Below are positions 1,948 to 56,697 of a stretch of 56,697 bases of DNA, piece by piece. Below the pieces are notes generated by a model. The model had not been told where the DNA came from. It saw nothing but the letters and a program-made list of their open reading frames with translations, and ran no database searches. Source of the DNA: a phage. Within the stretch, counting starts at the first letter, position 1; each line of letters begins with the position of its first letter. The stretch lies in sequence record PZ513998.1. The stretch is one strand, 5' to 3'. The translations under genes and the position numbers were made by a program.

Positions 1948-4014
1948 ATGGCTAAATACAAAAATCTCTTTGAGATCGCGGTCAAGATGTCGGATAACTT
2001 ACGACCCCCGGAAAGGTTGACCGTTTCTAATGCAGCATCTCAATATCGATATGTAAATTCTCCCGGGTCGTATGTAGGCCCGTGGTTGAATACAACAACG
2101 CCGTATATGGTCGAACCAATGGACGTATTAACTTCGCGCAATCACAGCAAGATGGCGTTTGTAGGCCCGGCACAGTCAGGTAAAACCGACGCGATTATCA
2201 TTAATGGCGTGTCATACTCAATCAAAGTCTCACCGATGGATACAATGGTATTCTGTCCGACAATGGCAGCCGCCCGAGACTTTTCTATGCGACGTATTGA
2301 TCGTCTTCACCGACACAGCCCGCTAATCGGCGAGCAATTGTTGAAAGGTAGAGACACCGACAATAAATTCGATAAACAATACATTACAGGTATGATGTTA
2401 ACTATCACATACCCTACCGTGACCGAATTGGCCGGACGACCGGTTCCAAGAATATTGATGACCGACTTTGACCGTATGGACGACGATATCGGCGGTGATG
2501 GTAATCCATTTGACTTGGCAACACAGCGTACAACAACCTTTGGTTCGTTTGCTATGACTATGGCCGAATCGTCCCCGTCGAGAGAGATTCTTGACCCGCA
2601 CTGGATAGCTAAGTCACCGCATGAGGCTCCGCCGTGTACCGGTATTATTGCGCTTTACAACCGTGGGGATAGACGACGTTGGCAATGGCCGTGTCCTCAC
2701 TGTGACGAATATTTCGAGGGTAAATTCGAGCATCTAACGTGGGACAACGGAAAACAGCTATCTAACCGAGAGAAAGCAGAAACCGTACAAATGGTATGCC
2801 CGGAATGTGGTTGTTTGATCCACCCCGACGAACGCTTTGAAATGAATTTATTCGGAGTGTGGGTTCCGGAGGGTTGTAAAGTTGATAAGAGCGGGAGACT
2901 TACGGGCAAAGCCCCTCATACCGACTTCATTTCTTACTGGCTCCGCGGTACGGCAGCCGCCTTTACGACATGGCAAAAACTGGTAAACATCTACCTCGAT
3001 GCCCTTGACGAATATCAACGGACGTACTCAGAAGAAGCCTTGAAGAAATTCTGGAATAACAACATGGGTGAGCCGTATCAGCCTAAGTCGTTAGAATCAG
3101 TCCGCGCACCGGAAGCACTGAAAAGCCGGTCATCAGATTACCCGCTAGGCATGGTTCCGAATGACGTTCGATTCCTCGTAGCAACGATAGACGTTCAATT
3201 GAATAGCTTCGTAGTACAGGTGTTCGGTATTTCCCCGGGTTCACCGTATGACACTCATGTTATAGACCGGTTCTTCATCAACAAGTCGGAGCGTAAGGAC
3301 GAAGACGGCGACGCAATGATCTTACAGCCGGCGACATACGAAGAAGACTGGAAACTTATCGAAAAACAGGTAATAGATAAAGAGTATCCGTTGTCAGACG
3401 GTAGCGGTAGAATGATGTCAATTAAGATGACCGGTTGTGACTCCGGGGGTAAATCTGGCGTAACCGGCATGGCATACGCGTTCTATCGATATTTGAAGAC
3501 AAAGAATAAACATGCTCGCTTCATCTTATTGAAAGGTGGCACACGAGTAACAGACCCGAGAACCCGTATTAGCTATCCGGACTCTAACCGGAAAAACGAT
3601 AAGAATGCAGCTAGAGGAGAAATCCCGGTATTATTCTTAAACTCGAACTTGTTGAAAGACGCATTAAACGGACGACTAGATTGTATTGAGCCTCACAAGG
3701 GCTATTATAATATGACTAGGGAATTACCGGACGAATTTTTCTCGGAGCTATGCGCCGAAACGAGAACCGCGAAAGGTTGGGAGAATTTAGCGCAAGCCCG
3801 AAACGAAGCATGGGACTTAAGCTACTACTGTTTGGGCCTTTGTACGTCTCCGGAGTTATTACGAGTAGAGTCGATAAATTGGGACAACCCCCCAACGTGG
3901 GCGGAGGAATGGGATAATAATACGATGGTCAGGGAACCCGAGGAAGAAAAACCATTCGCCTTTCAACCTCGACCGATGTTAGACTTTAGCCGTTTAGGTG
4001 AACTATTAGGATAG
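1948..4014 (+). CDS. terminase large subunit (GpA family)
   Basis: 688 aa; Walker A-like FVGPAQSGKTDA; Cys pairs CPHCDEYF...CPECGC typical of GpA zinc ribbon; adjacent to Nu1-like, gpW-like and portal genes; first 8 nt ATGGCTAA repeat 4592-4599. Confidence 0.8.
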   Translation: MAKYKNLFEIAVKMSDNLRPPERLTVSNAASQYRYVNSPGSYVGPWLNTTTPYMVEPMDVLTSRNHSKMAFVGPAQSGKTDAIIINGVSYSIKVSPMDTMVFCPTMAAARDFSMRRIDRLHRHSPLIGEQLLKGRDTDNKFDKQYITGMMLTITYPTVTELAGRPVPRILMTDFDRMDDDIGGDGNPFDLATQRTTTFGSFAMTMAESSPSREILDPHWIAKSPHEAPPCTGIIALYNRGDRRRWQWPCPHCDEYFEGKFEHLTWDNGKQLSNREKAETVQMVCPECGCLIHPDERFEMNLFGVWVPEGCKVDKSGRLTGKAPHTDFISYWLRGTAAAFTTWQKLVNIYLDALDEYQRTYSEEALKKFWNNNMGEPYQPKSLESVRAPEALKSRSSDYPLGMVPNDVRFLVATIDVQLNSFVVQVFGISPGSPYDTHVIDRFFINKSERKDEDGDAMILQPATYEEDWKLIEKQVIDKEYPLSDGSGRMMSIKMTGCDSGGKSGVTGMAYAFYRYLKTKNKHARFILLKGGTRVTDPRTRISYPDSNRKNDKNAARGEIPVLFLNSNLLKDALNGRLDCIEPHKGYYNMTRELPDEFFSELCAETRTAKGWENLAQARNEAWDLSYYCLGLCTSPELLRVESINWDNPPTWAEEWDNNTMVREPEEEKPFAFQPRPMLDFSRLGELLG

Positions 4015-4599
4015 ATGGCAAAGGCACCGGTAACAACAAGACGTCGTAGCAATCAGCTAGACCGTGAATCCGAGTCGATGATCTTCGACGGGGTTAACAT
4101 TACTCAGATCGCAAAGATATTTAACATGGAGCGTAGAGACGTTACGCCCAAGATCCGAGAAGTTCCTCCTTGCGGGGAACGAGGCGGGTATCCGATTTAC
4201 AAATTAAATGAAGTGGCGCCATACCTAGTAAAGCCCCTGTATGATGTCGAAACCTACATTAAGCGAATGCACCCCAACGAGCTTCCTAAAATGCTCTCTA
4301 AAGAGTTCTGGAACGGAATGAAAGCTAAGCAGGACTACGAGTTGAGAGAGGGTGAGCTATGGCCTACCGACCAAGTAGAAGCGCTAATGTCGGAGTCTTT
4401 TAAACACTTACGCATGTCATTACTCTTAGTAACGGACTCACTGGAACGTGAATCCACCCTCACCGATCATCAAAGAACCCGCATCACGGAAATGATAGAC
4501 GGCGCGCTAAATGAGATGGCGCAAACACTCGTTGAGGCATTCGGAGACCGGGCTAAGACGGAAGTCAAAGAGAGTACCGTAGGTGGCAAGAATGGCTAA
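4015..4599 (+). CDS. putative terminase small subunit (Nu1-like HTH protein)
   Basis: 194 aa; N-terminal HTH-like segment GVNITQIAKIFNMERRDVTPKI followed by GERGGYPIYKL, similar in layout to lambda Nu1; adjacent to large terminase. Confidence 0.45.
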   Translation: MAKAPVTTRRRSNQLDRESESMIFDGVNITQIAKIFNMERRDVTPKIREVPPCGERGGYPIYKLNEVAPYLVKPLYDVETYIKRMHPNELPKMLSKEFWNGMKAKQDYELREGELWPTDQVEALMSESFKHLRMSLLLVTDSLERESTLTDHQRTRITEMIDGALNEMAQTLVEAFGDRAKTEVKESTVGGKNG

Positions 4600-6123
4600 A
4601 TGCGAAAGAAATTCTCGAAACGTACGGTTGGGAAGACTAAAGTTAACCTACTTGAAGAAATCAGGAAAGGTAGAAAACTTGTTGAAAGACAACGGGAAGA
4701 CTTACACGAGTATCAAGTTGAAGCCCGACAACTGGCGCATGACATTCCATTCTGCGGATTATTCCTCGAAATGGGTATAGGCAAAACCGTAATAACCGGA
4801 ACGCTGATCGCCGACTTACTTGATAACTTTGAAGTAGATAGAGTTCTCATTATAGGCCCTCGTAGGGTGGCTAAAGTAACATGGCCGGACGAATTCATGG
4901 AGTGGGGTCATCTATGTGGGTATAAAGTAACGCCGGCAGTCGGAACACCCAAGGAAAGACTAGCGGTACTAAATAGCAATAGTCCTATCGTATCCATAAA
5001 CCGAGAGAATGTAAGCTGGCTAGTAAACTATTACAAAGGCAAGTGGCCGTTCGATATGGTGGTCATAGACGAGTCGAGTTCCTTTAAGTCTCACAAATCT
5101 AAGCGGTTTAAGGACTTAACTAAAGTCAGACCGAGGATAAAACGACTAATCGAGTTGACGGCCACCCCAAATGGCGAGGGATTTACTTCGTTCTTTTCTC
5201 AAATATATTTACTTGATTACGGTAAACGGTTCGGCCGTAGCTTCAATAAGTTTAGGGATAAATACTTCGAGTACAACCCGTATAACCACAGCATCAAGCC
5301 GAGAGAAGATACGGAGATGCGTATCTTAGAAAAGATAAAAGATATATGCGTAGTTATGCGAGCAGAAGACTATCTCGATCGAGTACCGTATGAGCCAAAG
5401 GTGATCCCGGTAAAACTCAATAAGAAGATCACCAAGGAGTATTTCGACTTCCAAAAGAATTTAGTCATGATGATACCCGAAGCGGAAAACGTCATAGTGG
5501 AAGCGCAATCGGCAGCGATACTCGCATTGAAACTGCTACAAATGTGCTCCGGCGTTATTTACAACACGTACTATGACGGGATAGATGAGAACGAGGAGCC
5601 GATAAGGAAGACCGACATCTATGATATCCACGAGGAGAAACTAGACGCGCTCGAAGTGTTTCTGGAAGAAGCAAAGGAAGCCGGAAAGAATGTTTTCCTT
5701 GGGTATCACTTTCGGTCATCACGAGAAAGAATATTAGCCCGATTCCCGGATATCGTCGAGATGGATAAAGACGGAAATAACATAAAACAATGGAACGCGG
5801 GGCGAATAAAAGTTTACATGGCACACCCTCAAAGTGCGGGGCACGGCTTGAATTTACAGCGGGGCGGACATACAATTCTTTTCTATGACATTCCGTATTC
5901 GTTCGAGAACTATGACCAATTTATCGGCCGGCTCGATAGGCAAGGTCAAAAGCACCGAGTAACAGTACACCACTTAGTTGCGGTCGGAACAAATGAAGAT
6001 GGCCGAACAGTCCAACTAGCCGACCGCCACGTTTATAACAATCTGAGACGTAAGGAAGAAAACCAAGATTGGGCCTTGAAGACCTTACGTGATCTCAGAA
6101 AAGCGATGAAAAAGGAAGTTTAG
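4600..6123 (+). CDS. SNF2-family helicase
   Basis: 507 aa; Walker A LEMGIGKTVITG, DExx box VVIDESSSF, C-terminal helicase motif QFIGRLDRQGQ; first 41 nt identical to 6371-6411. Confidence 0.8.
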   Translation: MRKKFSKRTVGKTKVNLLEEIRKGRKLVERQREDLHEYQVEARQLAHDIPFCGLFLEMGIGKTVITGTLIADLLDNFEVDRVLIIGPRRVAKVTWPDEFMEWGHLCGYKVTPAVGTPKERLAVLNSNSPIVSINRENVSWLVNYYKGKWPFDMVVIDESSSFKSHKSKRFKDLTKVRPRIKRLIELTATPNGEGFTSFFSQIYLLDYGKRFGRSFNKFRDKYFEYNPYNHSIKPREDTEMRILEKIKDICVVMRAEDYLDRVPYEPKVIPVKLNKKITKEYFDFQKNLVMMIPEAENVIVEAQSAAILALKLLQMCSGVIYNTYYDGIDENEEPIRKTDIYDIHEEKLDALEVFLEEAKEAGKNVFLGYHFRSSRERILARFPDIVEMDKDGNNIKQWNAGRIKVYMAHPQSAGHGLNLQRGGHTILFYDIPYSFENYDQFIGRLDRQGQKHRVTVHHLVAVGTNEDGRTVQLADRHVYNNLRRKEENQDWALKTLRDLRKAMKKEV

Positions 6124-6411
6124 ATGACTGTTAGAGAGAGCAAAGTCGAATCGGATATCCGAAAATACGCTTTGGCCCGAGGCTGGTGGGTTTCTAAATT
6201 TACTAGCCCCGGTAAACGAGGCGTACCAGACCGGATATTCATTAAAAACAGTTTTGTAGTTTTTATCGAAATCAAACGCCCCGGAGAGAAGCCGTCGAAG
6301 CAACAAGAATTACGCATGGCCGAGATGAAGCGCTACGGGGCTTTAGTATATTGGGTGGATAATTTAAACGATGCGAAAGAAATTCTCGAAACGTACGGTT
6401 GGGAAGACTAA
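6124..6411 (+). CDS. VRR-NUC domain nuclease
   Basis: 95 aa; PD-(D/E)xK-like core GVPDRIFIKNSFVVFIEIKRPGEKPSKQQ typical of VRR-NUC; classic partner of phage SNF2 helicases. Confidence 0.65.
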   Translation: MTVRESKVESDIRKYALARGWWVSKFTSPGKRGVPDRIFIKNSFVVFIEIKRPGEKPSKQQELRMAEMKRYGALVYWVDNLNDAKEILETYGWED

Positions 6412-8445
6412 GTGGAATCGAAAAGAACGTTAATTTTTGACTATGAAACATATAGCGAACTAGACATAAAGAAAGTAGGCGGTCACAAGTATGCACAGCA
6501 CCCGTCTACTGAAATTCTAATGGTAGCGTGGAAGTTTACTGACTCGGACGAAATCGGTTTTTGGGACAACACAATGCCCGAAGAAGATTTAGACGAGTTA
6601 AAGGGATATTTGCGCGACGATAACATCATAAAACGGGCATTCAACGCGCAGTTTGAGCGGTTGATCACTAAACACGTCCTAGGTATCGACACACCGTATG
6701 ACGTCTGGCGTTGTACGATGGTGGCTGCGTACCACCGAGGTTTTACCGGCGGGTTAGACATGGTTGGTAAGGCTCTAGGTTTTAAAGGGGATAAAGCAAA
6801 AGACGCAGCAGGTAAACGCCTAATTCAGAAATTTTGTAAACCAAGAAAGCCAACTAAACTCGACAAAAGTACAAGACACGATGCGGAATCACACCCGGAA
6901 GAATGGGAAGCATTCGGAGCCTATTGCCGACAAGACGTGATAGCCGAAGAAAATATCGACCGCCGTCTGAGTGACATCAAGTATGACATGATCGAATTTG
7001 AGTGGGAAGTTTACGCGTTAGACCAGAAAATTAATGACCGCGGAATAAATATCGATAACGACTTCATCGAAGCAGCAATAAAGATGGCCGAGACACGCAA
7101 GCCACAGATTATCGATGAAATGCGAGAACTTACAGGGCTAGCCAATCCCGGGTCTCAGAAACAACTATTAGCGTGGCTACAACAAGAGGGATACCCGTTC
7201 AACGACCTATTAGCTGACACCGTGAAAAAAGTCATAAACGAGTATCCGGACAATGGGATCACAGAAAAAGCGTGTCGAGTTCTTAAACTTCGTCGTAAAT
7301 CTAACAAAACCTCTCTAAAGAAATACAACAAAATGTTAGATATTGAAAACGACGACGGTAGGGTACGCGGAACAATTCAATGCTACGGGGGTTCTCGAAC
7401 CGGACGATTCGCCGGGCGGGGCTTACAAACTCACAACTTCGTAAGAACACCGAAGATACTTGAAGACGTCGAAGCTACGGAAATCGCTAAAAAGCTAGTT
7501 CTCGACCAAGACATGTGGGCTTTAAACGTTTTTGCTGGCGAACCCATGGATATGTTGCCGGGGCTACTACGATCCGCACTAATCCCAACGGTAGGTCGTC
7601 GCTTCGTTGTAGCGGACTTGTCATCAATTGAATCGGTAGTAATAGGTTGGCTTACCGGCTGTAAGTGGTTCCTAGATACCTTGCGGGCTAAAAAAGACTT
7701 ATATCGCGCATTCGCCTCAGCATGGCTAAAAATTCCTTACGAAGACACCCTCCCATTCCGAGGAAAGGCAAAACCGGCCACACTAGGTTGCGGATATCGA
7801 CTAGGCGGTGGCGAACTTATTGACGGTAAGAAAACCGGACTTTGGGGTTACGGTGAAAACATGGGAGTCATGCTAACACAAGAGGAGGCTCACGCTTCGG
7901 TAGACGCATTCCGAGAGTTGTGCCCTGAGATTGTTGACGGTTGGTATAAACTTGAAGATTGCGTAAAAACCACCATTAAGACGCACAAGACAACCCGATG
8001 GAGATCGTTAGTATTCGGGTTTAAAAAACCGTTCTTATGGATTAAGTTGCCATCGGGGCGGAAACTTTATTACTACCGCCCACGCTTAGTAACAAACACC
8101 TACAAGAACCGCAGAGGTGAGACGTACACTCGTCAAGAAATAATGTACGAGGGTAAAAAAGATCAAGGCGGTTGGGGTGTTCAAACCACGCACGGCGGGA
8201 AATTGATTGAGAATATCGTTCAAGCCATAGCAAGAGATGTCCTAGTAAACGGCATGTTTAATGCGGAAGAAATAGGTTTCGATATCGTATTCCACGTTCA
8301 CGATGAAATCATAACGGAAGTCGACGAAGATGACCTGTTAGGGCTAGACGACCTCATTGATTGTATGGCAGCACCGATATCGTGGGCGCCGGGACTACCA
8401 TTAGGAGCAGCAGGGTGGGAGGGGTATTTTTACCGTAAAGATTAA
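6412..8445 (+). CDS. DNA polymerase, family A-like with 3'-5' exonuclease domain
   Basis: 677 aa, GTG start; exo motif FDYETYSE, motif A-like VADLSSIESVV, motif B-like RGKAKPATLGCGYRLG, motif C HVHDEI. Confidence 0.75.
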   Translation: MESKRTLIFDYETYSELDIKKVGGHKYAQHPSTEILMVAWKFTDSDEIGFWDNTMPEEDLDELKGYLRDDNIIKRAFNAQFERLITKHVLGIDTPYDVWRCTMVAAYHRGFTGGLDMVGKALGFKGDKAKDAAGKRLIQKFCKPRKPTKLDKSTRHDAESHPEEWEAFGAYCRQDVIAEENIDRRLSDIKYDMIEFEWEVYALDQKINDRGINIDNDFIEAAIKMAETRKPQIIDEMRELTGLANPGSQKQLLAWLQQEGYPFNDLLADTVKKVINEYPDNGITEKACRVLKLRRKSNKTSLKKYNKMLDIENDDGRVRGTIQCYGGSRTGRFAGRGLQTHNFVRTPKILEDVEATEIAKKLVLDQDMWALNVFAGEPMDMLPGLLRSALIPTVGRRFVVADLSSIESVVIGWLTGCKWFLDTLRAKKDLYRAFASAWLKIPYEDTLPFRGKAKPATLGCGYRLGGGELIDGKKTGLWGYGENMGVMLTQEEAHASVDAFRELCPEIVDGWYKLEDCVKTTIKTHKTTRWRSLVFGFKKPFLWIKLPSGRKLYYYRPRLVTNTYKNRRGETYTRQEIMYEGKKDQGGWGVQTTHGGKLIENIVQAIARDVLVNGMFNAEEIGFDIVFHVHDEIITEVDEDDLLGLDDLIDCMAAPISWAPGLPLGAAGWEGYFYRKD

Positions 8446-9051
8446 ATGGCAAAACTTAAACCAGTAAAACGTATTAAACATGAAGGTAAAACAGTAGCGG
8501 TAATCTATGAAGACGGCCACGTCCGAATTGATAATGTTCGCTTGTCATACCCACACTTAGCAACACCACAAGAGGGTGATGACGGCAGTAAAAAGTTCGG
8601 TGCTACATTCTTATTAGACAAGGACATTCATTCTGAAACAGCCGAAGTCTTAAAAGATTTAGCAGCTAAAACAGCGAAAAACGCGAAAGTGAAAGTCCCG
8701 TCATCGAAGTATTTCATCAAAGATGGTGACGAAGAATTTTCGGACAAACCTGAATGTGAAAATATGTTTGTTATCTCCGCCCGGGAAAAGAAACGTCCTG
8801 TTTGTCGAGATGCTGACAAAGAAGAAATCGACGTAGACGATATTGAAGAAATCCTATACGGCGGTTGCTATGTTAGTGCCTTGATTGGTCTTTGGGTTCA
8901 AGATAACAAATACGGAAAACGAGTTAACGCTAACCTCCGTTCAATCAAATTCATCAAAGACGGCGAGCCGTTCGGTGCTGAAAGAATCGATGATTCCGAA
9001 GCGTGGGACGACGAAGACGAATGGGGTGAAGGCGAAGAAGACGACATCTAA
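8446..9051 (+). CDS. DUF2815-like phage ssDNA-binding protein
   Basis: 201 aa; acidic C-terminal tail DDSEAWDDEDEWGEGEEDDI as in SSBs; conserved position between DUF2800-like nuclease and DNA polymerase. Confidence 0.5.
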   Translation: MAKLKPVKRIKHEGKTVAVIYEDGHVRIDNVRLSYPHLATPQEGDDGSKKFGATFLLDKDIHSETAEVLKDLAAKTAKNAKVKVPSSKYFIKDGDEEFSDKPECENMFVISAREKKRPVCRDADKEEIDVDDIEEILYGGCYVSALIGLWVQDNKYGKRVNANLRSIKFIKDGEPFGAERIDDSEAWDDEDEWGEGEEDDI

Positions 9052-10380
9052 ATGGATAAATCATTTTTACATCGACTTATGTTGGCTTGCGAAAATGACG
9101 GACATTCGATATTCGCACCGTCATACTCCGCAACTTGGATGAATTGCCCCGGGTCGCTAGTACCTAGCATCTTGGAGGAAGATTCAGCCGGGTTCGAGGC
9201 AGCCGAGGGAACCATCGCCCACGCTATTGCTGAGGAGTGGTTGAGAACCGGGAACAGGCCCGACCACTTATTAAATACAACTCAGGTACACGAGGAGAAC
9301 GGAAATCGATTCGAGATCCCGGTCGACCACGAAATGTTCGAGTATCTTCAAGAATACATTAAGATGTGCGGTGAGAACAAAGGCGATCAGTTTGTAGAAA
9401 CTAAAGTGTGGTTCACGGACTTAATGCCGATCGCCAACCCGGACGCAGACGAGCTAAACGGGGAAGATGAAAGCCCGATTAAGTTTATCCGACAAGGCGG
9501 TACGTGTGACCACGCTGTATGCCAACCCGGTAAATTAATCATAACCGATTTGAAATACGGGCAATTCATTCACGTTTCTACTGACGACAATACTCAATTG
9601 AAATTGTACGCATACGGATTCTTTAGAGAGTTCGACGAAAAGTATCACTTCGAAGATATAGAGATCCGTATCTGTCAACCGAGAAAATATAATTTTGGCC
9701 GGTTTAAGATGACCCGTTCGGAGATTATCGCTTTCGGGGAGCGAGTGAAAAAAGCCACCAAAGAAGCGTGGAGTATGGACGCTCTACGTTACCCAAGTGA
9801 AAAGGCTTGCGAGTGGTGTAAGATATCCTACAAATGCCCGGCGAACTTCGCAAGAATACTAGATCTCAAGAACGGCAGATACAGCCCTAACCCATTCGGA
9901 TACTCGGCGGACGACATGGCAAGTATAAAAGATCTCCTCAGAGAAGAACTAAATTTACAATTAAAAGAGACTTCCCTATTGACATGGGAGGAAATTTCGT
10001 TAATATACCCACATCGCAAGCCGATAGAGAAGTGGTTCAAAGATGTTGAGAAAGCAGCATCAAAACGGATCATGGAGGGTAAGCCGATAAAAGGCTTGAA
10101 GATGGTAGCGAAAAGAGGGACTCGGCAGTTTGTTGAGGAGTCCACGGCCACGGAAGAACTAGAATTTGTAGGGCTAGACGAAAGTCAAATAAACCCCACA
10201 AAGATGATATCCCCGAAACAGGCCGAAACACTATTGAAAAAGCTAGGATATGATAAAGATGTTGTTAAAAGCATCTTGTCTGACCTGACTTTTACAAAAC
10301 CGGGCGAACCGACGTTAGTTACAGAGGACGACCCACGAAAAGACCTAAACGAGAAGTATCAAGAAGTTTGGGACGATTAA
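9052..10380 (+). CDS. DUF2800-like PD-(D/E)xK (Cas4-like) nuclease
   Basis: 442 aa; N-terminal MDKSFLHRLMLACENDGHSIFAPSYSATWMNCPGS; Cys cluster CEWCKISYKCP; conserved partner of DUF2815 and PolA. Confidence 0.55.
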   Translation: MDKSFLHRLMLACENDGHSIFAPSYSATWMNCPGSLVPSILEEDSAGFEAAEGTIAHAIAEEWLRTGNRPDHLLNTTQVHEENGNRFEIPVDHEMFEYLQEYIKMCGENKGDQFVETKVWFTDLMPIANPDADELNGEDESPIKFIRQGGTCDHAVCQPGKLIITDLKYGQFIHVSTDDNTQLKLYAYGFFREFDEKYHFEDIEIRICQPRKYNFGRFKMTRSEIIAFGERVKKATKEAWSMDALRYPSEKACEWCKISYKCPANFARILDLKNGRYSPNPFGYSADDMASIKDLLREELNLQLKETSLLTWEEISLIYPHRKPIEKWFKDVEKAASKRIMEGKPIKGLKMVAKRGTRQFVEESTATEELEFVGLDESQINPTKMISPKQAETLLKKLGYDKDVVKSILSDLTFTKPGEPTLVTEDDPRKDLNEKYQEVWDD

Positions 10381-10863
10381 ATGTCACAACAAAACGGCGT
10401 TTTAGAAATGTTATTAGCTAGCTTCGCAACTTTAAACGAGAATATCGAGAAGTTAAACGGAAACATCGAAGCGTTGGTAGCTAACGGCGTAGCATCGGGT
10501 AAAACTGAAACTAATGCCGACACTAAAGCTGAAAGCAAATCTGAAACTAAAGCAGAAAGCAAGTCAGAGACTAAGACAGAAGAAAAGAAAGCGGATAAAA
10601 AATCTAATTCTAAAAAATCTGAAAAACAAGCTGACAAGCCGGCGGATAAACCTAAATACACTAAATCAGACATCACCGAAGCGCTTCGCAAAGTTCGAGC
10701 TGATATCGACAAAGAAGAAGCGGTTCGCATCATCAATGAAGTCGGCGGTGTTGAGAAGATGGGCCAGATCCCAGAAGATAAGTATGAAGCTGTTTTCCAA
10801 GCGTGTGAAGCATCTCTTAACGGTGAATCAGATGACGACTCAGGCGATGACGACGATATGTAA
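10381..10863 (+). CDS. hypothetical acidic protein with KSETK repeats
   Basis: 160 aa; repeats ESKSETKAESKSETKTEEKK and Asp-rich C-terminus SDDDSGDDDDM; function unknown. Confidence 0.35.
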   Translation: MSQQNGVLEMLLASFATLNENIEKLNGNIEALVANGVASGKTETNADTKAESKSETKAESKSETKTEEKKADKKSNSKKSEKQADKPADKPKYTKSDITEALRKVRADIDKEEAVRIINEVGGVEKMGQIPEDKYEAVFQACEASLNGESDDDSGDDDDM

Positions 10864-11199
10864 TTGACTGGATTGTCTCGTTTCGACACGGCCTATAATA
10901 CTCGTTATGAAATCCCTGTCAACACCTTTTTGACGAAATTTTTATATCGGGTATCCACCTCAATGTTAGGCCACCCGAAAAGTTTCATTGCCGGTAAGAT
11001 GTTTATCGCCTTTTAGGTGATACTTTTATCCTCTCAACTGATATCGCTCTCAGGTGGCCGTAGATTTAAGTCCGTTCACGTATTGACTTTCTGTTTTAAG
11101 TGGAATATCCCGCGCGTTGACTTATCTATAATTCTTGCGGTATTATCTGCGTCTACCCTCGGGTTAGATTTATCACAACTAAGGAGCAAGTATTTATGA

Positions 11200-11484
11200 A
11201 TGAAAGAGAGTAATTTCCCATCGTGGGCGAAGAACAATAAAACGGGTCGACTTAAATTCATGATCCGGCATTTAGCCAGTTTCGCTTCGGAGGAGGGCCA
11301 CCTAGTTTTCCTGTGCCGAGACGCTAAACTGTCGGTTCGTGGTGTCTCACAAGCAATCGACCGAGGAGAATTCACCTTTCAAATGGCGGATAAACTCGTT
11401 AAGGCTGCAAGCGTTGCTGGAAACCCGGACGTCACAGTTATGAACCTATTAAAACCTATGGAATCATTTAAAGAGGACAAATAA
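11200..11484 (+). CDS. hypothetical protein
   Basis: 94-aa ORF; AAGGAG 9-13 nt upstream (11182-11187). Confidence 0.3.
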   Translation: MKESNFPSWAKNNKTGRLKFMIRHLASFASEEGHLVFLCRDAKLSVRGVSQAIDRGEFTFQMADKLVKAASVAGNPDVTVMNLLKPMESFKEDK

Positions 11485-14160
11485 ATGTCTAACGTTTTCA
11501 AATCTCGTGGCCCTGAACTTTTCGACAATGGATACGAAGTCGTACCTATTACTCGTATCGACGCAACTGACAGCAAAGGGAAATTATTGTCTGGCGCGGG
11601 TAAAGCCCCGGCGTTAAAAGGGTGGCAGAAAATAGAGATCACTTCTGACATCGTTAATGAATGGGCGACGGGTAGTCGCTCTCGCTGTGGTGTGGGTATT
11701 CGTACCCACCGTAACCCTGCTGTCGATATCGACTGTTTAGACGCCGAAGCGTCAGAACACATGACGGCTTTCGTTGAGTCGGAAGTGGGCTTTGCTCCTA
11801 TCCGTGTTGGGCGTGAACCTAAAGCGCTACTCCTCTATTATACAGAACGTCCTTTCACAAAAGTAAAATCAACCATCTTCGTTGATGAAAACGGGAATGA
11901 AAACGCTGTCGAGATATTAGGAAGCGGGCAACAATTCGTTGCTTACGGTATCCACCCGGGAACTAAGAAACCGTATAAATGGGTTACTAAAGGCGAGTCG
12001 CCTGCGGAAAACCAAGCGGATTTTGACCTTGAAGAAATCACACTAGAAGACGCGAGAAAAATTATTGCGGAATTCGACCGGTATGCGAAAGAGCGCGGTT
12101 GGAAACCTTTAAAAAGTAAAAGCGGTACGGTCATCAAGCCATCTTTGGGCTACTACTTAGATGCTCCGGAAGAACTATCAGACTGGTCGGACGAGTCGGA
12201 CTTTGACGATGATGAAGACGATTGGGTCACTACTGATGATATCACCGATAAATGGGACGGTACTTACGAAGAACTTTACGAAATCTTCGAAAATGATATC
12301 GAACCATCTTACGATTACCACACTTGGATTCCTGTTCTGGCTGCACTTAAAGACGCCGAACGTGAGCCGGACGAGTTTAAAGAGATCGCGAGAATGTGGT
12401 CTGCTCGGGCCGAGGAGTCTTTCGATAACGATGCCTTTGAAGATAAATGGGAAAACGGTAATTTCAATCGTGTTGGTAAATACGCTAAGACATTACGAGG
12501 AGTAATTGCCGAAGCGGAAAAGATCCAAGGCGTTCGCGAAATTGAGGACGTAGTTATACCTTTATTCGAAAAAGCTACTGACTTGGCCGAGTGGACTTTA
12601 GCTGCCGACCGCCTACGTGAAACGTGGGCTTTCGGTTTAGAAAGAGAGACGGCCATAAACATTGCTTGCGAAAAGTATAAGAAAGTCACTAACGGGTTAA
12701 AACTTACGGACGTTCAAAAGAAACGATATCTTAGTATCGATTACTCTCTCTTTGACGCTCCCGAATGGTTGGCTCCTTGGGTTTATTGTACTACGGATAA
12801 CGAGTTTATTAACTTAGACAATAGAACCAGAATGAACCCTAAATCTTTCGCGAATGCCTATAACCGAGAAACTGTGAAGAAATTCGGGGTAGCTGCGGAC
12901 GTTTTCGCCACGGTTGAAAGACCCGTTCCTGTTATCCACGATACGATGTATTACCCGTTGATGCACGGTGAGATGCCTAAGAACAAATGGAAGCGGGTTC
13001 CGGGTATTAATGACAAGCGTGTTTTCGAATACAACGGTTTGACGTTCTTAAATACCTTTGACCATCGTTCCATGCCTGAGACCGCAACAAAAATTTCGAC
13101 CGCTGGATATAAGGCGATCGGGGAGGTAAAACGATACTTCGAAATACAGTATCCAGATCCAGACGAACGAAGACATGCGATGGACTGGATCGCGTGGGTT
13201 ATCAATAATCCTGTTAGAAAGATTAACTATATGCTTCTCGTTCTTGGTGGTCAGGGTTCCGGTAAAACCATCGTTAAGAAGTTTATGGAACACATGCTCG
13301 GCTCTGATAACGTCTCTACGATTTCGAATAAGGTTATCCATGGTAATTTTACCGGGTGGCAGTCTGGTCACATGCTCAAAGTTATTGAGGAAATATCGGT
13401 GAGTGGTCATCGCTACGACGTTATGAACTCATTGAAAGAGCCGATATCGAATGAAACGTTACAGATCGAAGCGAAGTACCGTGACCCACGCCAGTGTGTG
13501 AATACTTCGTCGTATATGGCATTTACCAATGATGTTGGTGCTTTGCCTCTTACATCAAGTGACCGTCGCTTCTTGTTAGTTCGTAGTGCGTTCCAGCACA
13601 AGCGTGAAGTCACTGAATACCTACGGAAAGACCCTAATTACTTTAAACGGTTTGAGAAAGCCTTTACTAAACACGCACCGGAGATCCGCAAATGGTTTAG
13701 CGAGTGGGAGTATTCCGAGGGCTTCAAACACGATGGTAACGCTCCTGAAACGGTGAGTATGGGAAGCATGTCTTTAGCGTCAGAAGACGATTTCACCTCC
13801 GTAGTAATGGGGGCCGTAGATGATTGTGAGAAAGAGTTAGAATTTACATCGGGGATCACAGACGAAGTAATTTTCATTCCATCGGCAGTAGATTTAGTCC
13901 GAGATAGGTCTAAGGTTCCTAACGGGAAAATAATATATCGCATACTCGCTGAATATGGTTTCTTCCGGCCTGTGGATTCTCGTACACAAATAAGATTTAA
14001 TGACGTAAGAGGACAAGTTGTTGTCGCGAATAGACATAAATGGCTCTATCCTGATGGGAGTGTCAACGTAGATAAGATTAAAGAGCATTTAGAGGAGAAC
14101 GAACGCCGGGTAGAAGAACAAGAAAGCAAGAGAGAGTTAGAAGAAACTGACGTTTTCTAA
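11485..14160 (+). CDS. DNA primase-polymerase (prim-pol) fused to D5/P-loop helicase
   Basis: 891 aa; N-terminal prim-pol-like segment (GKAPALKGW, VGIRTHRNPAVDIDCLD, EILGSGQQFVAYGIHP); C-terminal Walker A LVLGGQGSGKT. Confidence 0.75.
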   Translation: MSNVFKSRGPELFDNGYEVVPITRIDATDSKGKLLSGAGKAPALKGWQKIEITSDIVNEWATGSRSRCGVGIRTHRNPAVDIDCLDAEASEHMTAFVESEVGFAPIRVGREPKALLLYYTERPFTKVKSTIFVDENGNENAVEILGSGQQFVAYGIHPGTKKPYKWVTKGESPAENQADFDLEEITLEDARKIIAEFDRYAKERGWKPLKSKSGTVIKPSLGYYLDAPEELSDWSDESDFDDDEDDWVTTDDITDKWDGTYEELYEIFENDIEPSYDYHTWIPVLAALKDAEREPDEFKEIARMWSARAEESFDNDAFEDKWENGNFNRVGKYAKTLRGVIAEAEKIQGVREIEDVVIPLFEKATDLAEWTLAADRLRETWAFGLERETAINIACEKYKKVTNGLKLTDVQKKRYLSIDYSLFDAPEWLAPWVYCTTDNEFINLDNRTRMNPKSFANAYNRETVKKFGVAADVFATVERPVPVIHDTMYYPLMHGEMPKNKWKRVPGINDKRVFEYNGLTFLNTFDHRSMPETATKISTAGYKAIGEVKRYFEIQYPDPDERRHAMDWIAWVINNPVRKINYMLLVLGGQGSGKTIVKKFMEHMLGSDNVSTISNKVIHGNFTGWQSGHMLKVIEEISVSGHRYDVMNSLKEPISNETLQIEAKYRDPRQCVNTSSYMAFTNDVGALPLTSSDRRFLLVRSAFQHKREVTEYLRKDPNYFKRFEKAFTKHAPEIRKWFSEWEYSEGFKHDGNAPETVSMGSMSLASEDDFTSVVMGAVDDCEKELEFTSGITDEVIFIPSAVDLVRDRSKVPNGKIIYRILAEYGFFRPVDSRTQIRFNDVRGQVVVANRHKWLYPDGSVNVDKIKEHLEENERRVEEQESKRELEETDVF

Positions 14161-14294
14161 ATGTTGTACAAAAATCACCCAACACACATGATCGAATTAC
14201 CTTTATATAGCTTATATATATATTTTTCTATTTTTCCTTTCCTATCTATTTTTTCTTTCTTCTGGAATTTCTATTTTATTATCTATTACTGTGT

Positions 14295-14350
14295 TTGCTG
14301 TGTCAGAAAGAAAGTAATATAGTTGCTGTGTCAGAAAGAAAGTAATATAG
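14295..14350. repeat. tandem direct repeat, 2 x 28 bp (TTGCTGTGTCAGAAAGAAAGTAATATAG)
   Basis: two perfect adjacent copies at 14295-14322 and 14323-14350, inside an AT-rich stretch. Confidence 0.9.
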
Positions 14351-15090
14351 TAAAAACAATAACTTACCTTGGAACACCTATTGGAACATCAGCCGGCACA
14401 GCAATTTCCTGTGACACACCACCAGCCATGGTAATACCTAAAACGGCGCATAACTATTTGATATTATTACGGAATTACCTAAAATACCGGTCATTACGGT
14501 AAATGATGTCCCCTATTGCTAAAGCCTGTGCGTCGCTCTCCGTGCTTTCTAGAGAAGAATCACTTTTAAATCGAAAAAGGTACTTGGACGAGTTGTCCGG
14601 TTGGGCGGGGGTGCGCAGAGCCGTCTTCCAGAAATTTGTCCGGGATCTGCCATAGATGTTTGGGTGTTCGGGTGGGCGGTGTTGTGGGTTAGATGTGCTT
14701 CAAATTGTAAGCGTGTGCGATTGTGCGAGGCGATCGCGGTGTTAGTTGTCGGTCGTATCCGTTGAGCGGGGGTATAGCGCCTCGGGTGAACACGCCGATC
14801 GGGAACGTCGTTTTTACGTTTTGTGCGGGTGTTCGGGTGTGCGGTTGTACCGCATGACGTTTTTACAAATATAAATGCGGTCGCGCCAGCGCCTACCCAC
14901 CCAACACCACCACCCCAAGCCCTCACTCTCCCCCATTCCCCCCCACCCTATGGAAAATTGCCGTAAAGCCATGTGTTGCGTCCTCAGCGTGTTTTGCCCG
15001 CTAGGTAAGGCCGATGTATTACCTACGATGAGTTATGCCCGTGTGGTTCGATTGAGGGCGGAAGACGGCGCTTTGTTTGTTCCGACTTAA

Positions 15091-15330
15091 ATGAGCATTC
15101 TCAAGATGCTACTCTCCGGTGTGTACAACGTGGGCGCCGTGTGTTTCTTCGGCCTAATTTCGATTTATATTCTCTCGTTCTTTTTCCGCGCCCTACAAAA
15201 CCACGGTTTCGACGGTCTACACCGCACTACGTTAGTTCTCGAATCAATCGGCGCTATCATGATGGTCGTCTTCATGGTTTGCGTTGCGATCTTGGTGTTC
15301 GCCGGAGGCGTCGCCCTAACAATCCGGTAG
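15091..15330 (+). CDS. hypothetical small membrane protein (2 predicted TM helices)
   Basis: 79 aa; hydrophobic stretches GAVCFFGLISIYILSFFF and IGAIMMVVFMVCVAILVFAGGVAL. Confidence 0.3.
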   Translation: MSILKMLLSGVYNVGAVCFFGLISIYILSFFFRALQNHGFDGLHRTTLVLESIGAIMMVVFMVCVAILVFAGGVALTIR

Positions 15331-19425: not shown

Positions 19426-19995
19426 ATGGCAGAATTAGCATACACTAAAGCGTCTATCTTCCAATCTATCGTTGATGATGTTAGTACGGGTCTACCTAAA
19501 GGAACTTCATTAGATACCCGCGGAGATTTCGAAAATCAATTACGCGACCTTTTCGAAGAAAATAATCTTATGAATGCGCCGGAATGTATCAGCGTCGACT
19601 ACTTCGGGGAAGCATGGGAGATCGTCCAGTCTAGCGAGTTTGATTCTGTTGAGCTAGAAACGCCTTTAGATTTCAGCGGGTGCAAAAGTTCATTAAAATG
19701 TTTGATGATGGAAGCTAACGCATTAATAAGCGCGTCTTGGCGTGAACAAGTGGAAGCCTACATCGAAGAACTGGCCGAAGCACTGGAAGAAGTTGTCGAG
19801 GGTTGCGAGGAGTTCGGAACAATCGACGAACTGGTAATCACTGGCGGGTGCCGTTTCGGTCACATTCCACACCTAAGAGAGTTCGATGCTGGCGACTTTT
19901 CTGTGTGCATGTGGGCGCCGAACGAAGCCGGAGAGTCTGAAATTTATTATAATTTCCGAGGTCTGGAACTGCGCGGGGTTGTATATCATGGGTAA
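19426..19995 (+). CDS. hypothetical acidic protein
   Basis: 189-aa ORF. Confidence 0.3.
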   Translation: MAELAYTKASIFQSIVDDVSTGLPKGTSLDTRGDFENQLRDLFEENNLMNAPECISVDYFGEAWEIVQSSEFDSVELETPLDFSGCKSSLKCLMMEANALISASWREQVEAYIEELAEALEEVVEGCEEFGTIDELVITGGCRFGHIPHLREFDAGDFSVCMWAPNEAGESEIYYNFRGLELRGVVYHG

Positions 19996-20373
19996 GTGGA
20001 CGGTGTGACATACTTTTCATCAGTTCCTAAAGATACCAATTCACGCCGGGCGAGATCCCGGCTTTCTTCGTTCTTGAGTCCGCACGAAAAAGAGTTACAA
20101 CTATCTACGCACGACATACAGACTATTTTAAACCTAGCTAATGCGTTTTACTTCCGAGCTGATCCGGAGAGTAAACCGGCTTACTCAGACAACAAAACTA
20201 TTGTAAGCCTTCGCATATCCGGAATAGTCGAAGATGATCGGGGCTGGCTCATTATCCGCCGGCATTTCCTTAATTCTGGTCAGTGCTGGAAGACGTTGCA
20301 CTTAGAGGTTATTTTTACCCACATAGAAAATCTGACCTTATGTGAGTGTAAAATTCCCTATTTCCCCGATTGA
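19996..20373 (+). CDS. hypothetical protein
   Basis: 125-aa ORF, GTG start. Confidence 0.25.
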   Translation: MDGVTYFSSVPKDTNSRRARSRLSSFLSPHEKELQLSTHDIQTILNLANAFYFRADPESKPAYSDNKTIVSLRISGIVEDDRGWLIIRRHFLNSGQCWKTLHLEVIFTHIENLTLCECKIPYFPD

Positions 20374-20565
20374 ATGATGAAGAATAAAATCACATTAAAC
20401 AGCGGTATGATTTTAATCGCTGACGACGAAAAAGTTACGGTAAACGCAGACGGTTCGCTATTCTGTCCGGCGTGGGATATGCGCTTTATGTTAACTCGTA
20501 ACATTTCATATAATCGAACGGTTACACATCGAGAGGTGAAAAGTTTTGAGCGATTATACAGTTGA
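20374..20565 (+). CDS. hypothetical protein
   Basis: 63-aa ORF. Confidence 0.2.
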   Translation: MMKNKITLNSGMILIADDEKVTVNADGSLFCPAWDMRFMLTRNISYNRTVTHREVKSFERLYS

Positions 20566-22218: not shown

Positions 22219-22539
22219 ATGAAAAATTCAAACGTAGCACTCGCCATTGATTCCGTTTTGGTAAAAAAGAAAATTGATATTATCCCGGTTTTTAAATCGT
22301 TAGAGGAAGAATATCAAATGCGGATACAAGCGTCGTGGTCAGGCATCACCGCGCACACGCCAGAACGACGCATCTACACCCACGGCCACCCGACTACTAA
22401 GATGGCAACAACACCGGAACAACGTACAACGTATCGCCTCCGTCTATTGAAATTCCTACGGTGGCTCTACGCGAACAACTACACAACGGGGCCACTGTTA
22501 GAAATCAAATCGTGGCTAGAGGAGCAAGAGGAATGGTAA
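22219..22539 (+). CDS. hypothetical protein
   Basis: 106-aa ORF. Confidence 0.3.
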   Translation: MKNSNVALAIDSVLVKKKIDIIPVFKSLEEEYQMRIQASWSGITAHTPERRIYTHGHPTTKMATTPEQRTTYRLRLLKFLRWLYANNYTTGPLLEIKSWLEEQEEW

Positions 22540-22887: not shown

Positions 22888-23976
22888 ATGAAACCATTTG
22901 ATAAATTTATTGCTTTTGCAATATCTGAACCAGCAGACCCTAACAATACGACTTCGTTTTCCGCATTAGCTAACGGGACAGAAGACCAACTAAAACAACT
23001 AGGCCGAGAACTAGAAACAAGCCTGAGAAACTTACCGATCGGAGACCCAAGCGCTATGCAGTGGACGCGCCACGGTTTTGCTAAACCCGACGAGAACGCC
23101 GAACCGATCACCGTTGTAGATGAAGTCCTAGGGGACATGGAAGACACACCATACGTTATGATAGACGAAGCGGGTAAATATCTTGTGTTCACTTTCGAAG
23201 AACGTGCTCGAATGCTAAGCCCGACAACGATCAAGGACGAATTAGAGGTTAAAGTAAAAGATTGGATAGAACGAGTTGGTGACACCCCGACAAAACGTGA
23301 ACGTAATGATATGCGCGATGAAATCATCAATGACTTGTTGCCAAAGGCCACAATAAAGCGCACCAAGACATACGCCATGATCATCAAGGGTGTTCTTATT
23401 GTCTTCGCCGGTAGCAATAACATCGGTGAAAAAGTAGCATCGGCCGTAAGAAAGGTAGTAGGGTCTCTCCCAGTAGTACCATGGTTTGAGCATTCGGCCC
23501 TCATTACGGAGTTTCTAAAGAAAATCGCTACGGTAGACTTTGACCCGGAAGATGCAGTAGGCCAAGCGCTAGATAAATTTGAGATTGTCCGTAGTGCTAA
23601 AGTCTCCGCTGAAACCGGTGCGTACACTTTCAAAGATGTTTTTGACATCACGAATGACGTTTCCTTCAAAGAAGCGCTAGGACAAACTAACGGATACTCA
23701 TACCCTCTCGGGATCACCGAAGCGAATTTAGAATTACGACATGACGCCACAGACAGCCCTATCGGTTTTGTTCTTACGGCCAAAGGCGTTTTAAAGAGCG
23801 TAAATTGGAATGACGAGCCGGAAAATATTTTCGACGACTCAGTGTTTGACACGAACGAGGAACGGGAGCGTGCTCGATTTATTTTCTCTACGTGGGACGC
23901 TTACACCTTAGTTACGGCCGTGCTAGGAGCGCTACACAACGCAAACGCAAACCGATTTGTAGAAGACGATATGTAA
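22888..23976 (+). CDS. RdgC-like recombination-associated protein
   Basis: 362 aa; segment KRERNDMRDEIINDLLPKA...AVRKVVGSLPVVPWFEHS matches the RdgC core (…LKDEVLHSLLPRAF…LLRKSLGSLPVVPLSMEN). Confidence 0.6.
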   Translation: MKPFDKFIAFAISEPADPNNTTSFSALANGTEDQLKQLGRELETSLRNLPIGDPSAMQWTRHGFAKPDENAEPITVVDEVLGDMEDTPYVMIDEAGKYLVFTFEERARMLSPTTIKDELEVKVKDWIERVGDTPTKRERNDMRDEIINDLLPKATIKRTKTYAMIIKGVLIVFAGSNNIGEKVASAVRKVVGSLPVVPWFEHSALITEFLKKIATVDFDPEDAVGQALDKFEIVRSAKVSAETGAYTFKDVFDITNDVSFKEALGQTNGYSYPLGITEANLELRHDATDSPIGFVLTAKGVLKSVNWNDEPENIFDDSVFDTNEERERARFIFSTWDAYTLVTAVLGALHNANANRFVEDDM

Positions 23977-53091: not shown

Positions 53092-53439
53092 ATGTCAGAG
53101 ACCAAAGAAACTGTAGTACAACGCGTGGCGCTTCAAACGATCATCTTACGTCGTAACGGCCAGCAATTCGTTCCGGCCATCGGCGATGTAGTTGAACTCA
53201 CAACCTCCGAGTTAGAACAGATTAACGCAACTAACCCTAGCGCTATCGGCCACATTAAGATTAATCAATCTGTGGCAAAGGCCCTCGTCGAAAAGACGGT
53301 TGATATGGAAGCCATCAAACGAGAAGCACTAGAACAAGCCCGTGCAGAACTCGCAGCCGAACAAGCTAAATCCGCAGACACGGCAAAGAGCAATAAGAAA
53401 GGAGCCAAAGCGAAGACCGACGCTGACGACGATCTATAA
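53092..53439 (+). CDS. putative head completion / DNA stabilisation protein
   Basis: 115-aa ORF with Ala/Lys-rich helical C-terminus, adjacent to major capsid gene; positional assignment. Confidence 0.3.
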   Translation: MSETKETVVQRVALQTIILRRNGQQFVPAIGDVVELTTSELEQINATNPSAIGHIKINQSVAKALVEKTVDMEAIKREALEQARAELAAEQAKSADTAKSNKKGAKAKTDADDDL

Positions 53440-56181: not shown

Positions 56182-56697
56182 AACCTTTCATACGAACAGT
56201 TTAGCCGAGACTACACGAAGACTAACTATTCTTCCGCGAGAGCCTCAATGGGGGAAACATGGAAATTCATGCAGTCTCGCAAAAAGATCATTGCTGATGC
56301 TTTCGCTACAAACATTTATGCGTTGTGGTTAGAGGAGATGATAAACAAAAACGAAATCCCGTTGCCACGAGGAAAAACGAGCGACTGGTTTTACGAACCG
56401 TTAGTGAAAGACTGTTTAATTCGTTGCGACTGGATAGGTGCAGCCCGCGGTCAAATCGACGAGAAGAAAGAGACCGAAGCAGCTATCATGAGAATTAACA
56501 GTGGTCTGAGCACTCGTGAGAAAGAAATCGCTCGACTCGGCGAAGACTGGAGAGAGATTTTTAGGCAGTTAGAACGAGAAAAACGAATAAAAGATAAATA
56601 CGGGCTTGTTTTCTCCGGAGATGTGAGTAATATATCCGCTAACGAGAAAACAAACTCGGAAGATGACGAAGAAACTAACAGTGGGGATTCGGAATGA
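56182..56697 (+). CDS. portal protein, lambda gpB family, C-terminal fragment lacking a start codon
   Basis: open in frame 1 directly after the protease stop; first ATG only at 56248; translation NLSYEQFSRDYTKTNYSSARAS...CDWIGAARGQIDEKKETEAAIMRINSGLSTREKE is colinear with gpB residues following ...IAAGL (GVSYEQLSRNY...CDWIGSGRMAIDGLKEVQEAVMLIEAGLSTYEKE); continues exactly where ORF 547-1671 stops. Confidence 0.75.
   Translation, partial: NLSYEQFSRDYTKTNYSSARASMGETWKFMQSRKKIIADAFATNIYALWLEEMINKNEIPLPRGKTSDWFYEPLVKDCLIRCDWIGAARGQIDEKKETEAAIMRINSGLSTREKEIARLGEDWREIFRQLEREKRIKDKYGLVFSGDVSNISANEKTNSEDDEETNSGDSE

Follow-up and report, generated by a model that had tools for sequence, protein, structure and literature searches.

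An Enc34-type replication and recombination module in Escherichia phage E21 and the conserved, uncharacterised protein gp09 encoded within it

How much of its own replication and recombination does a phage take in hand when it gathers a primase, a polymerase, a protein that binds single-stranded DNA (SSB), two nucleases and a helicase in one place, and what is a small acidic protein, gp09, doing among them? These questions are raised by positions 4600-14160 of sequence record PZ513998.1, a stretch of phage DNA of 56,697 nucleotides (nt) which, at its full length, is referred to here as the window. A further question is whether a cluster in which all genes share one strand, with nothing between them, can be taken at face value. 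The locus is very probably the module for replication and recombination in Escherichia phage E21, presented in the record as joined coding sequences, for which a mechanism can be proposed. The module itself is already known and its genes are already annotated in the deposited E21 genome (MN604053/NC_052983) as primase, exonuclease, Gp2.5-like SSB, DNA polymerase, endonuclease/VRR-NUC and DNA helicase/SNF2. The same gene set constitutes the replication module of Enc34 and the 'Nazgul-like' phages (PMC5686142), and duf2800-gp2.5-polA recurs as a module in phages of both Firmicutes and Gram-negative bacteria (PMC8093625), in keeping with the claim of an initial annotation of this DNA that the genes form a known co-occurring cassette. 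With respect to the module, then, nothing new is added: a deposited Lavrentievavirus with an Enc34-type replication/recombination cassette is confirmed. What stands out within it is gp09, which is conserved but uncharacterised and forms part of a replication module very common among phages.

Gene content and true layout of the module

The six families proposed for this region in the initial annotation are all present, recognised either by profile or by homology to solved structures, and the boundaries it gave for the open reading frames (ORFs), all on the plus strand of the window, hold throughout. The polymerase (PolA; 6412-8445, 677 amino acids (aa), GTG start) belongs to family A and carries an N-terminal 3'-5' exonuclease. 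It matches DNA_pol_A (PF00476) with an E-value (E) of 3e-10 and 40.0 bits against a cut-off of 34.3, and phrog_17 at 1.4e-120. Its polymerase motifs A, B and C, aligned to Pol theta, read DLSSIE, RGKAKPATLGCGY and VHDE, and its exonuclease motifs Exo I, II and III, which read FDYET, NAQFE and YCRQD, fall within residues 8-176, so that the pairing of exonuclease and polymerase motifs claimed earlier is borne out. No Pfam exonuclease model matched the exonuclease part, while the NCBIfam models for Pol I (E 3.6e-7) and DpoZ_1 (7.6e-4) align to residues 34-253 through their exonuclease regions.

The adjoining 201-aa protein (8446-9051) is classed, on sequence, as an Enc34/T7 gp2.5-type single-stranded DNA-binding and annealing protein. 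It matches Enc34_ssDNA-bd (PF10991, the renamed DUF2815) at E 1.5e-29 with 103.3 bits against a cut-off of 26, phrog_112 at 3.9e-47 and the solved Enc34 ORF6 (PDB 5ODJ) at E 3.9e-54, and its acidic C-terminal tail, AWDDEDEWGEGEEDDI, ends in ...EEDDI. The DUF2815 protein of Enc34 is established as an SSB of the gp2.5 type, and its tail is likewise acidic (PMC5686142). The 442-aa protein next to it (9052-10380; the GenBank start lies 9 codons later) is a DUF2800 PD-(D/E)XK Cas4-like predicted nuclease with a predicted iron-sulphur cluster. The DUF2800 profile (PF10926) is matched at E 2.7e-66 with 224.7 bits over positions 1-368 of 368, and phrog_69, 'exonuclease', at 4.3e-96; the motifs CDH, TDLKYG and QLKLY can be read, together with four cysteines (one N-terminal, then CEWCKISYKC) of the kind typical of Cas4-like nucleases. 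Among PDB sequences no relative of this protein appeared, even at E up to 1.

Priming and unwinding are predicted to reside in one 891-aa polypeptide (11485-14160; E21 11075-13750), in which Prim-Pol and PriCT_2 domains are followed by a DUF5906/VapE-like P-loop helicase of superfamily 3 (SF3). The supporting matches are to Prim-Pol (PF09250; E 1.9e-10, 41.9 bits against a cut-off of 22.8), PriCT_2 (E 3.2e-6, 27.9 bits against 22), DUF5906 (E 2e-15, 57.9 bits against 27.6), VapE-like (1.3e-4) and phrog_1156, 'DNA primase' (4.1e-134). Residues 543-700 align to PDB 6K9E, 'Primase', at 7.6e-5, and the match to TIGR01613, primase_Cterm, is weak. The primase motifs VDIDC and YGIHP, a Walker A motif GGQGSGKT and a Walker B motif VIEE are all legible. 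The earlier description of this protein as a Prim-Pol fused to a P-loop helicase is therefore upheld, whereas its D5 helicase label falls away, since D5_N (PF08706) gave no match at E up to 0.01 and the helicase part is DUF5906/VapE-like.

The remaining two genes specify proteins of predicted branch processing. The SNF2-family helicase/translocase (4600-6123, 507 aa; E21 4062-5585, minus strand) matches SNF2-rel_dom (E 1.3e-8, 34.8 bits against a cut-off of 24.9), ResIII (1.3e-6), phrog_62, 'DNA helicase' (8.7e-135) and, in the PDB, Rad54, INO80 and RapA at about 1e-9. Its translation contains LHEYQ, GIGKT, DESS, TATP and GRLDRQGQ, and the N-lobe profile, the helicase motifs and a C-terminal RecA-like lobe together place it in the SNF2 family (PF00176). 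GenBank and RefSeq begin this protein at Met58 of the 507-aa ORF, within Walker A (MGIGKT), and so lose LHEYQ (window 4600-4770; E21 5415-5585). The longer ORF is the better model, as alignments begin upstream of the deposited start, with phrog_62 at residue 26 and the PDB matches at residues 47-57. The standalone VRR-NUC nuclease (6124-6411, 95 aa) aligns over its full length with PDB 4QBO (stNUC; E 4.4e-12) and 4QBN (saNUC; 1.4e-4), matches phrog_93, 'endonuclease', at 1e-27 and displays the catalytic residues PD...EIK, the homology to solved standalone proteins and the PD...ExK residues together identifying it as VRR-NUC. These two standalone viral proteins are dimeric Holliday-junction resolvases (PMC4103454), and the E21 protein is, on this homology, probably one too.

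Can the arrangement of these genes be trusted? The long ORFs of the window (1-56697) all occupy frame 1 on the plus strand, every one beginning 1 base after the preceding stop, and when frame 1 is cut at stop codons it falls into 85 coding pieces, all of which are 100% identical to E21 (58,536 bp; Casjensviridae, Lavrentievavirus). Mapped back, the pieces derive from both E21 strands, with normal gaps and overlaps in the genome, and sum to 96.9% of its length. The order is broken by the first two pieces, which map to E21 19875-20413; the portal gene is cut by the start of the record, its 5' part ending in an added TAA that is not in the E21 genome, and the final piece begins with AAC. What the window presents is not natural DNA: predicted coding sequences, all turned into coding orientation, have been joined artificially, head to tail. 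Stop-codon reassignment or a polyprotein, either of which might account for a single-frame layout, is ruled out by the mapping to both strands with normal gaps and overlaps. The stretches that carry signs of joining are 1-546, 547-1671 and 56182-56697.

As the window consists of joined coding sequences, its strand, spacing, transcription-relative gene order and intergenic signals are untrustworthy, and conclusions drawn from any of these anywhere along it are unreliable; its gene content is trustworthy. It might be supposed that assembly produced the cluster itself, with its order, single strand and zero spacing, and that no real cassette exists, a view to which 85 pieces in one frame without intergenic DNA, two of them out of order and one with an added TAA, lend some colour. 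Yet nine genes are contiguous in E21 at 4062-13750, the information lost is confined to strand and spacing, and natural contigs show the same neighbourhood. An artefactual origin of the clustering is hardly credible and is refuted by this contiguity, the order and strand in the window alone being artefactual. Apart from this, genomes nearly identical to this one (94-99%) have been deposited under Proteus, Salmonella, E. coli, Pseudomonas, Enterococcus and Staphylococcus; such a host spread is implausible for one phage species, which suggests that some of the records are affected by host mislabelling or contamination.

In the E21 genome the module takes the form of two divergent operons around a 352-bp intergenic region (10439-10790). 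The rightward operon comprises gp10 and the primase-helicase, which is transcribed divergently from the DUF2800-to-SNF2 genes, while the leftward operon runs gp09, DUF2800, SSB, PolA, VRR-NUC, SNF2, small terminase subunit (TerS), large terminase subunit (TerL) and then structural genes, with the small terminase subunit gene starting 2 nt after SNF2. The intergenic DNA appears in the window (10864-11199, no strand assigned; E21 10459-10794) as two abutting small ORFs, 50 and 60 aa long and opening with TTG and GTG, which have no PHROG match, gave low-complexity noise only against Pfam at E up to 10 and are absent from the GenBank and RefSeq annotation; from the genome mapping this stretch is the divergent promoter region between the operons and contains no genes. 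It holds sigma70-like sites in both directions, TTGACA-16-TATTAT leftward and TTGACT-18-TATTAT rightward (E21 10490-10517 and 10712-10741), and a terminator-like hairpin (E21 9915-9936) comes after gp09, these being consensus matches only. A search for iteron-like repeats in the intergenic region gave just short two-copy matches that could be due to chance, and an Rfam scan of E21 3400-15200 matched no family.

The rightward operon opens with gp10 (11200-11484, 94 aa; E21 10791-11075), the stop of which overlaps the primase start by one base in E21. It matches phrog_7401, of unknown function, at 2e-30; NCBIfam gave no match and Pfam, at E up to 10, low-complexity noise only. The gene is kept upstream of the primase in three related loci (L005-L007). 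On the other side of the primase lies a 1.4-kb stretch (E21 13750-15160; partly window 14161-15090) with no deposited gene annotation, which the window presents as six ORFs of 29-71 aa. Its GC content falls to 0.30, and it contains several direct repeats, among them GTACAAA(A/T)TTTATACAG (two copies) and AAAAACGACG(C/T)TCCCGATCGG (two copies) as well as C-rich ACCCGAACACCC repeats; it may be an origin or terminator region.

A predicted route for replication and recombination

What would such a set of proteins do together? Taking biochemical roles from the characterised homologues, the following scheme can be drawn. Back-to-back sigma70-like promoters within the 352-bp region would drive the two operons. 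PolA, providing polymerase and proofreading exonuclease, would combine with the primase-helicase and the gp2.5-type SSB into a T7-like minimal replisome. The Cas4-like DUF2800 nuclease, partnered by the SSB acting as an annealing protein, would form an exonuclease/annealase pair able to support recombination-dependent replication and the formation of concatemers. The SNF2 translocase may remodel branches or migrate them, and a dimeric VRR-NUC resolvase would cut them, the two together debranching concatemers shortly before packaging by the adjacent terminase; a role at that stage fits the location of the SNF2 and VRR-NUC genes directly upstream of those for the terminase.

Several points weigh against this account of the module. 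The roles of the E21 proteins are all taken from homologues and are predictions only. The family assignments are also uneven in strength: among the profiles by which the initial annotation suggested they could be checked, SNF2, DNA_pol_A, DUF2815, DUF2800 and Prim-Pol were matched, whereas D5_N was not and VRR_NUC (PF08774) remained below its cut-off (15.7 bits against 23.8, E 0.016), as did Helicase_C, slightly, on the SNF2 protein (21.3 bits against 23.5). PolA is very divergent, its best PDB match, Pol theta, being weak (E 9.5e-4). Finally, among the genes of the module there is no ligase, clamp or RNase H, which means that host factors would still be needed. The earlier view that the cassette implies largely host-independent replication is consequently justified only in part.

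Might the module instead serve chiefly recombination and repair, with replication left mainly to the host replisome and PolA acting as a gap-filling or repair polymerase? The DUF2800 protein, the gp2.5-like annealase, VRR-NUC and SNF2 are all of recombination/repair types, PolA has no recognisable processivity factor, with no clamp encoded in the module, and Pol theta, its closest solved relative, is a repair enzyme. Against this, a primase fused to an SF3 helicase and adjoining a polymerase and an SSB is the signature of an autonomous replisome. Moreover, relatives hold a polymerase of replicative family-B type in the PolA slot, which argues that the slot is one for a replicase. In T7, too, a PolA, a primase-helicase and gp2.5 are sufficient for replication, save for host thioredoxin. 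A predominantly repair-related purpose is therefore improbable, and a module serving both replication and recombination is the preferred reading.

gp09 and the acidic tails

The remaining gene of the leftward operon, and the first to be transcribed from it, encodes gp09 (10381-10863, 160 aa). The protein has an N-terminal helix (residues 3-36), a disordered linker rich in lysine, glutamate, serine and threonine, a helical domain (95-148) and an acidic tail ending in ...GDDDDM. In an AlphaFold2 model built from 38 sequences the predicted local distance difference test score (pLDDT) is at least 92 across residues 91-150, an earlier model from 9 sequences having been poor (mean pLDDT 59.6). The KSETK repeat noticed in the initial annotation is real: it is a 24-nt unit in the linker, present in 3.1 copies (window 10500-10574). 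The unit encodes KAESKSET, and its copy number differs among Lavrentievavirus relatives more than 90% identical, one of which has an extra unit (164 aa) while in others units are missing (146-155 aa), a pattern suggestive of slippage within a linker that tolerates changes in length.

That annotation left the 160-aa protein unassigned. Its function is indeed uncharacterised, yet it is no orphan, since it belongs to a broad family tied to the module. It matches phrog_7721, of unknown function, at 2.5e-50; Pfam gave no family (low-complexity noise only, at E up to 10), and NCBIfam yielded weak matches (E 0.003-0.008), far under curated cut-offs. Close relatives are confined to Lavrentieva­viruses and a few proteins at 43-49% identity. 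When 1.84 billion representatives (clusters at 50% identity) are searched with a profile, the family widens to at least 219 proteins at E up to 1e-3, which share an N-terminal amphipathic helix, a low-complexity linker of variable length rich in K, E, A and T, a helical domain of about 55 aa marked by the signature GGVxKMxxIPxxKYxxV and, as a rule, an acidic tail with L, I, M or F as its last residue. The 38 members that were aligned all match phrog_7721, and a consistent match to any Pfam family is seen in none of them; the PHROGs that match the family are all of 'unknown function', and the homologues in cultured phages are named as hypothetical or implausibly.

The tie to the module comes from gene neighbourhoods, for which related loci were sought with an alignment of the C-terminal domain. 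Seven IMG/VR loci have the order primase (minus strand), in some cases gp10 (minus strand), gp09-like gene, DUF2800, SSB, polymerase, VRR-NUC, SNF2, TerS and TerL. Six metagenomic contigs with distant members, some of them from phages of 90-127 kb, carry the gene in an operon that also holds DUF2800 and an Enc34-type SSB, and in 5 of the 6 it comes directly after a divergent Prim-Pol/DUF5906 gene. Linkage to the DUF2800/Enc34-SSB module is thus complete, at 13 of 13 loci, in what is a small and partly related sample, and gp09 is a member of a conserved, uncharacterised family tied to the Enc34-type replication module. In the large 90-127 kb contigs (L012-L016) a standalone HIRAN-domain gene occurs 1-2 genes downstream of the gp09-like gene (for instance at L012 9547-9897 and L013 10219-10533) and is separated from DUF2800 by Tad3-like, MazG, PAP2 and deaminase genes, which hints at fork-remodelling and nucleotide-metabolism additions to the module.

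What is the significance of the acidic tail? It is not peculiar to gp09: the SSB (...EEDDI), gp09 (...DDDDM) and the primase-helicase (...EETDVF) all close with a run of acidic residues and then a single hydrophobic one. Across E21, 6 of 85 products carry such tails against about 0.7 expected (background 0.78% per position; P about 6e-5), these being encoded at 8446-9051, 10381-10863, 11485-14160, 22219-22539, 22888-23976 and 53092-53439. One of the six is an RdgC-like recombination protein (...VEDDM). Similar tails recur in relatives, where they are also found on the family-B polymerase and the small terminase subunit.

In T7 the acidic tails of gp2.5 and gp4 dock onto the T7 polymerase. By analogy with these tails, gp09 is proposed to be a tail-mediated accessory of the replisome or of the recombination machinery. 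Its mechanism is wholly inferred: gp09 may self-associate through its N-terminal helix and dock on a partner in the module through its SSB-like acidic C-terminal tail, much as the gp2.5 and gp4 tails do. A more specific version, tentative and less likely than not, would make gp09 an obligatory accessory of the module, a multivalent hub or tail mimic, the acidic tip of which competes for, or bridges, a single site where the SSB and the primase-helicase would dock their tails, as would the polymerase and the small terminase subunit in relatives. Some findings count against so central a part for the tail. The tail statistic was devised post hoc, once the pattern had been noticed, and some family members (P0048, P0059 and L010) have no acidic tail. 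On the supporting side, a gp09-like module forms the C-terminus of a single SNF2 helicase, P0121 (hhalign probability 97%), but this protein lies on a contig of 2.3 kb and runs to the end of it, where a read-through error is possible, and so the fusion is weak evidence.

A different view of gp09 is that it is an early host-takeover or anti-defence protein, for example a decoy of the C-terminal tail of host SSB that would occupy the host enzymes that bind SSB, or a protein that disturbs host defence in some other way, and that it simply shares the early promoter. Its gene directly follows the leftward promoter and has a terminator-like hairpin behind it, so that expression could be early and strong; the protein is net acidic, with a tail that resembles SSB tips and without a recognisable enzymatic or DNA-binding fold, and its linker and repeat number change fast among close relatives. 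Anti-defence genes usually lie in variable regions. The position of gp09 beside DUF2800, SSB and primase, in contrast, is kept in all the loci above, in phages that range from 58 to 127 kb and differ in their other early genes, its C-terminal domain is well conserved, and one fusion of SNF2 with a gp09-like module exists (P0121). Host takeover or anti-defence is accordingly unlikely. As for another candidate, an Ocr-type DNA mimic is not favoured, as the linker is lysine-rich (16 K/R against 12 D/E) and the tail alone is strongly acidic. If gp09 is the hub proposed, it would represent a new regulatory layer in phage replisomes, built on shared acidic tails; and if it works through its acidic tail, the idea of tail docking drawn from T7 gp2.5 and gp4 would extend to a large group of phages.

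Comparison with known systems

How does the E21 module compare with those already described? The nearest is that of the Enc34/'Nazgul-like'/Casjensviridae phages, which has the same set of primase, small putative regulator, DNA polymerase, VRR-NUC, helicase, DUF2815 SSB and hypothetical proteins (PMC5686142), and the E21 SSB resembles Enc34 ORF6 down to its acidic tail. The polymerase is where relatives diverge. E21 and other Lavrentieva­viruses have a family-A enzyme, as does Providencia phage Kokobel1 (L005) in the same slot, whereas in six distant syntenic relatives (L006-L011), which are nearest to Burkholderia phage AH2, a family-B-like polymerase stands between SSB and VRR-NUC (L006 6883-9012, and the same slot in L007-L011). 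The latter is recognised by the motifs DVTSYYP, KIVLNG[TS]FG and NTDG, by phrog_1252 and by PDB 1S5J (3e-4), with no Pfam match. This amounts to a non-orthologous polymerase swap within a conserved cassette.

With the duf2800-gp2.5-polA module (PMC8093625) E21 shares the order DUF2800, gp2.5-like SSB/annealase and PolA, with no separate ssb gene. Unlike that trio, E21 adds gp09 upstream, VRR-NUC and SNF2 downstream, and a divergent primase-helicase operon. The predicted nuclease of E21 is similar to stNUC and saNUC (4QBO, 4QBN; PMC4103454) in its size (92-95 aa), its full-length alignment and its PD...ExK residues.

The predicted functional logic, finally, matches that of T7, with its gp5 PolA, gp4 primase-helicase, gp2.5 SSB, gp6 exonuclease and gp3 endonuclease I. 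Both have a proofreading PolA, a primase and a helicase within one polypeptide, an SSB of the gp2.5 fold, an exonuclease and a junction-resolving nuclease, and in both the SSB and the primase-helicase bear acidic C-terminal tails with a hydrophobic end. The parts that fill these roles are in several cases different. The E21 primase is of the archaeo-eukaryotic Prim-Pol type as opposed to the DnaG/TOPRIM type of T7, its helicase belongs to SF3 rather than superfamily 4 (SF4), and its nucleases are DUF2800/Cas4-like and VRR-NUC in place of gp6 and gp3, to which E21 adds a SNF2 translocase and gp09.

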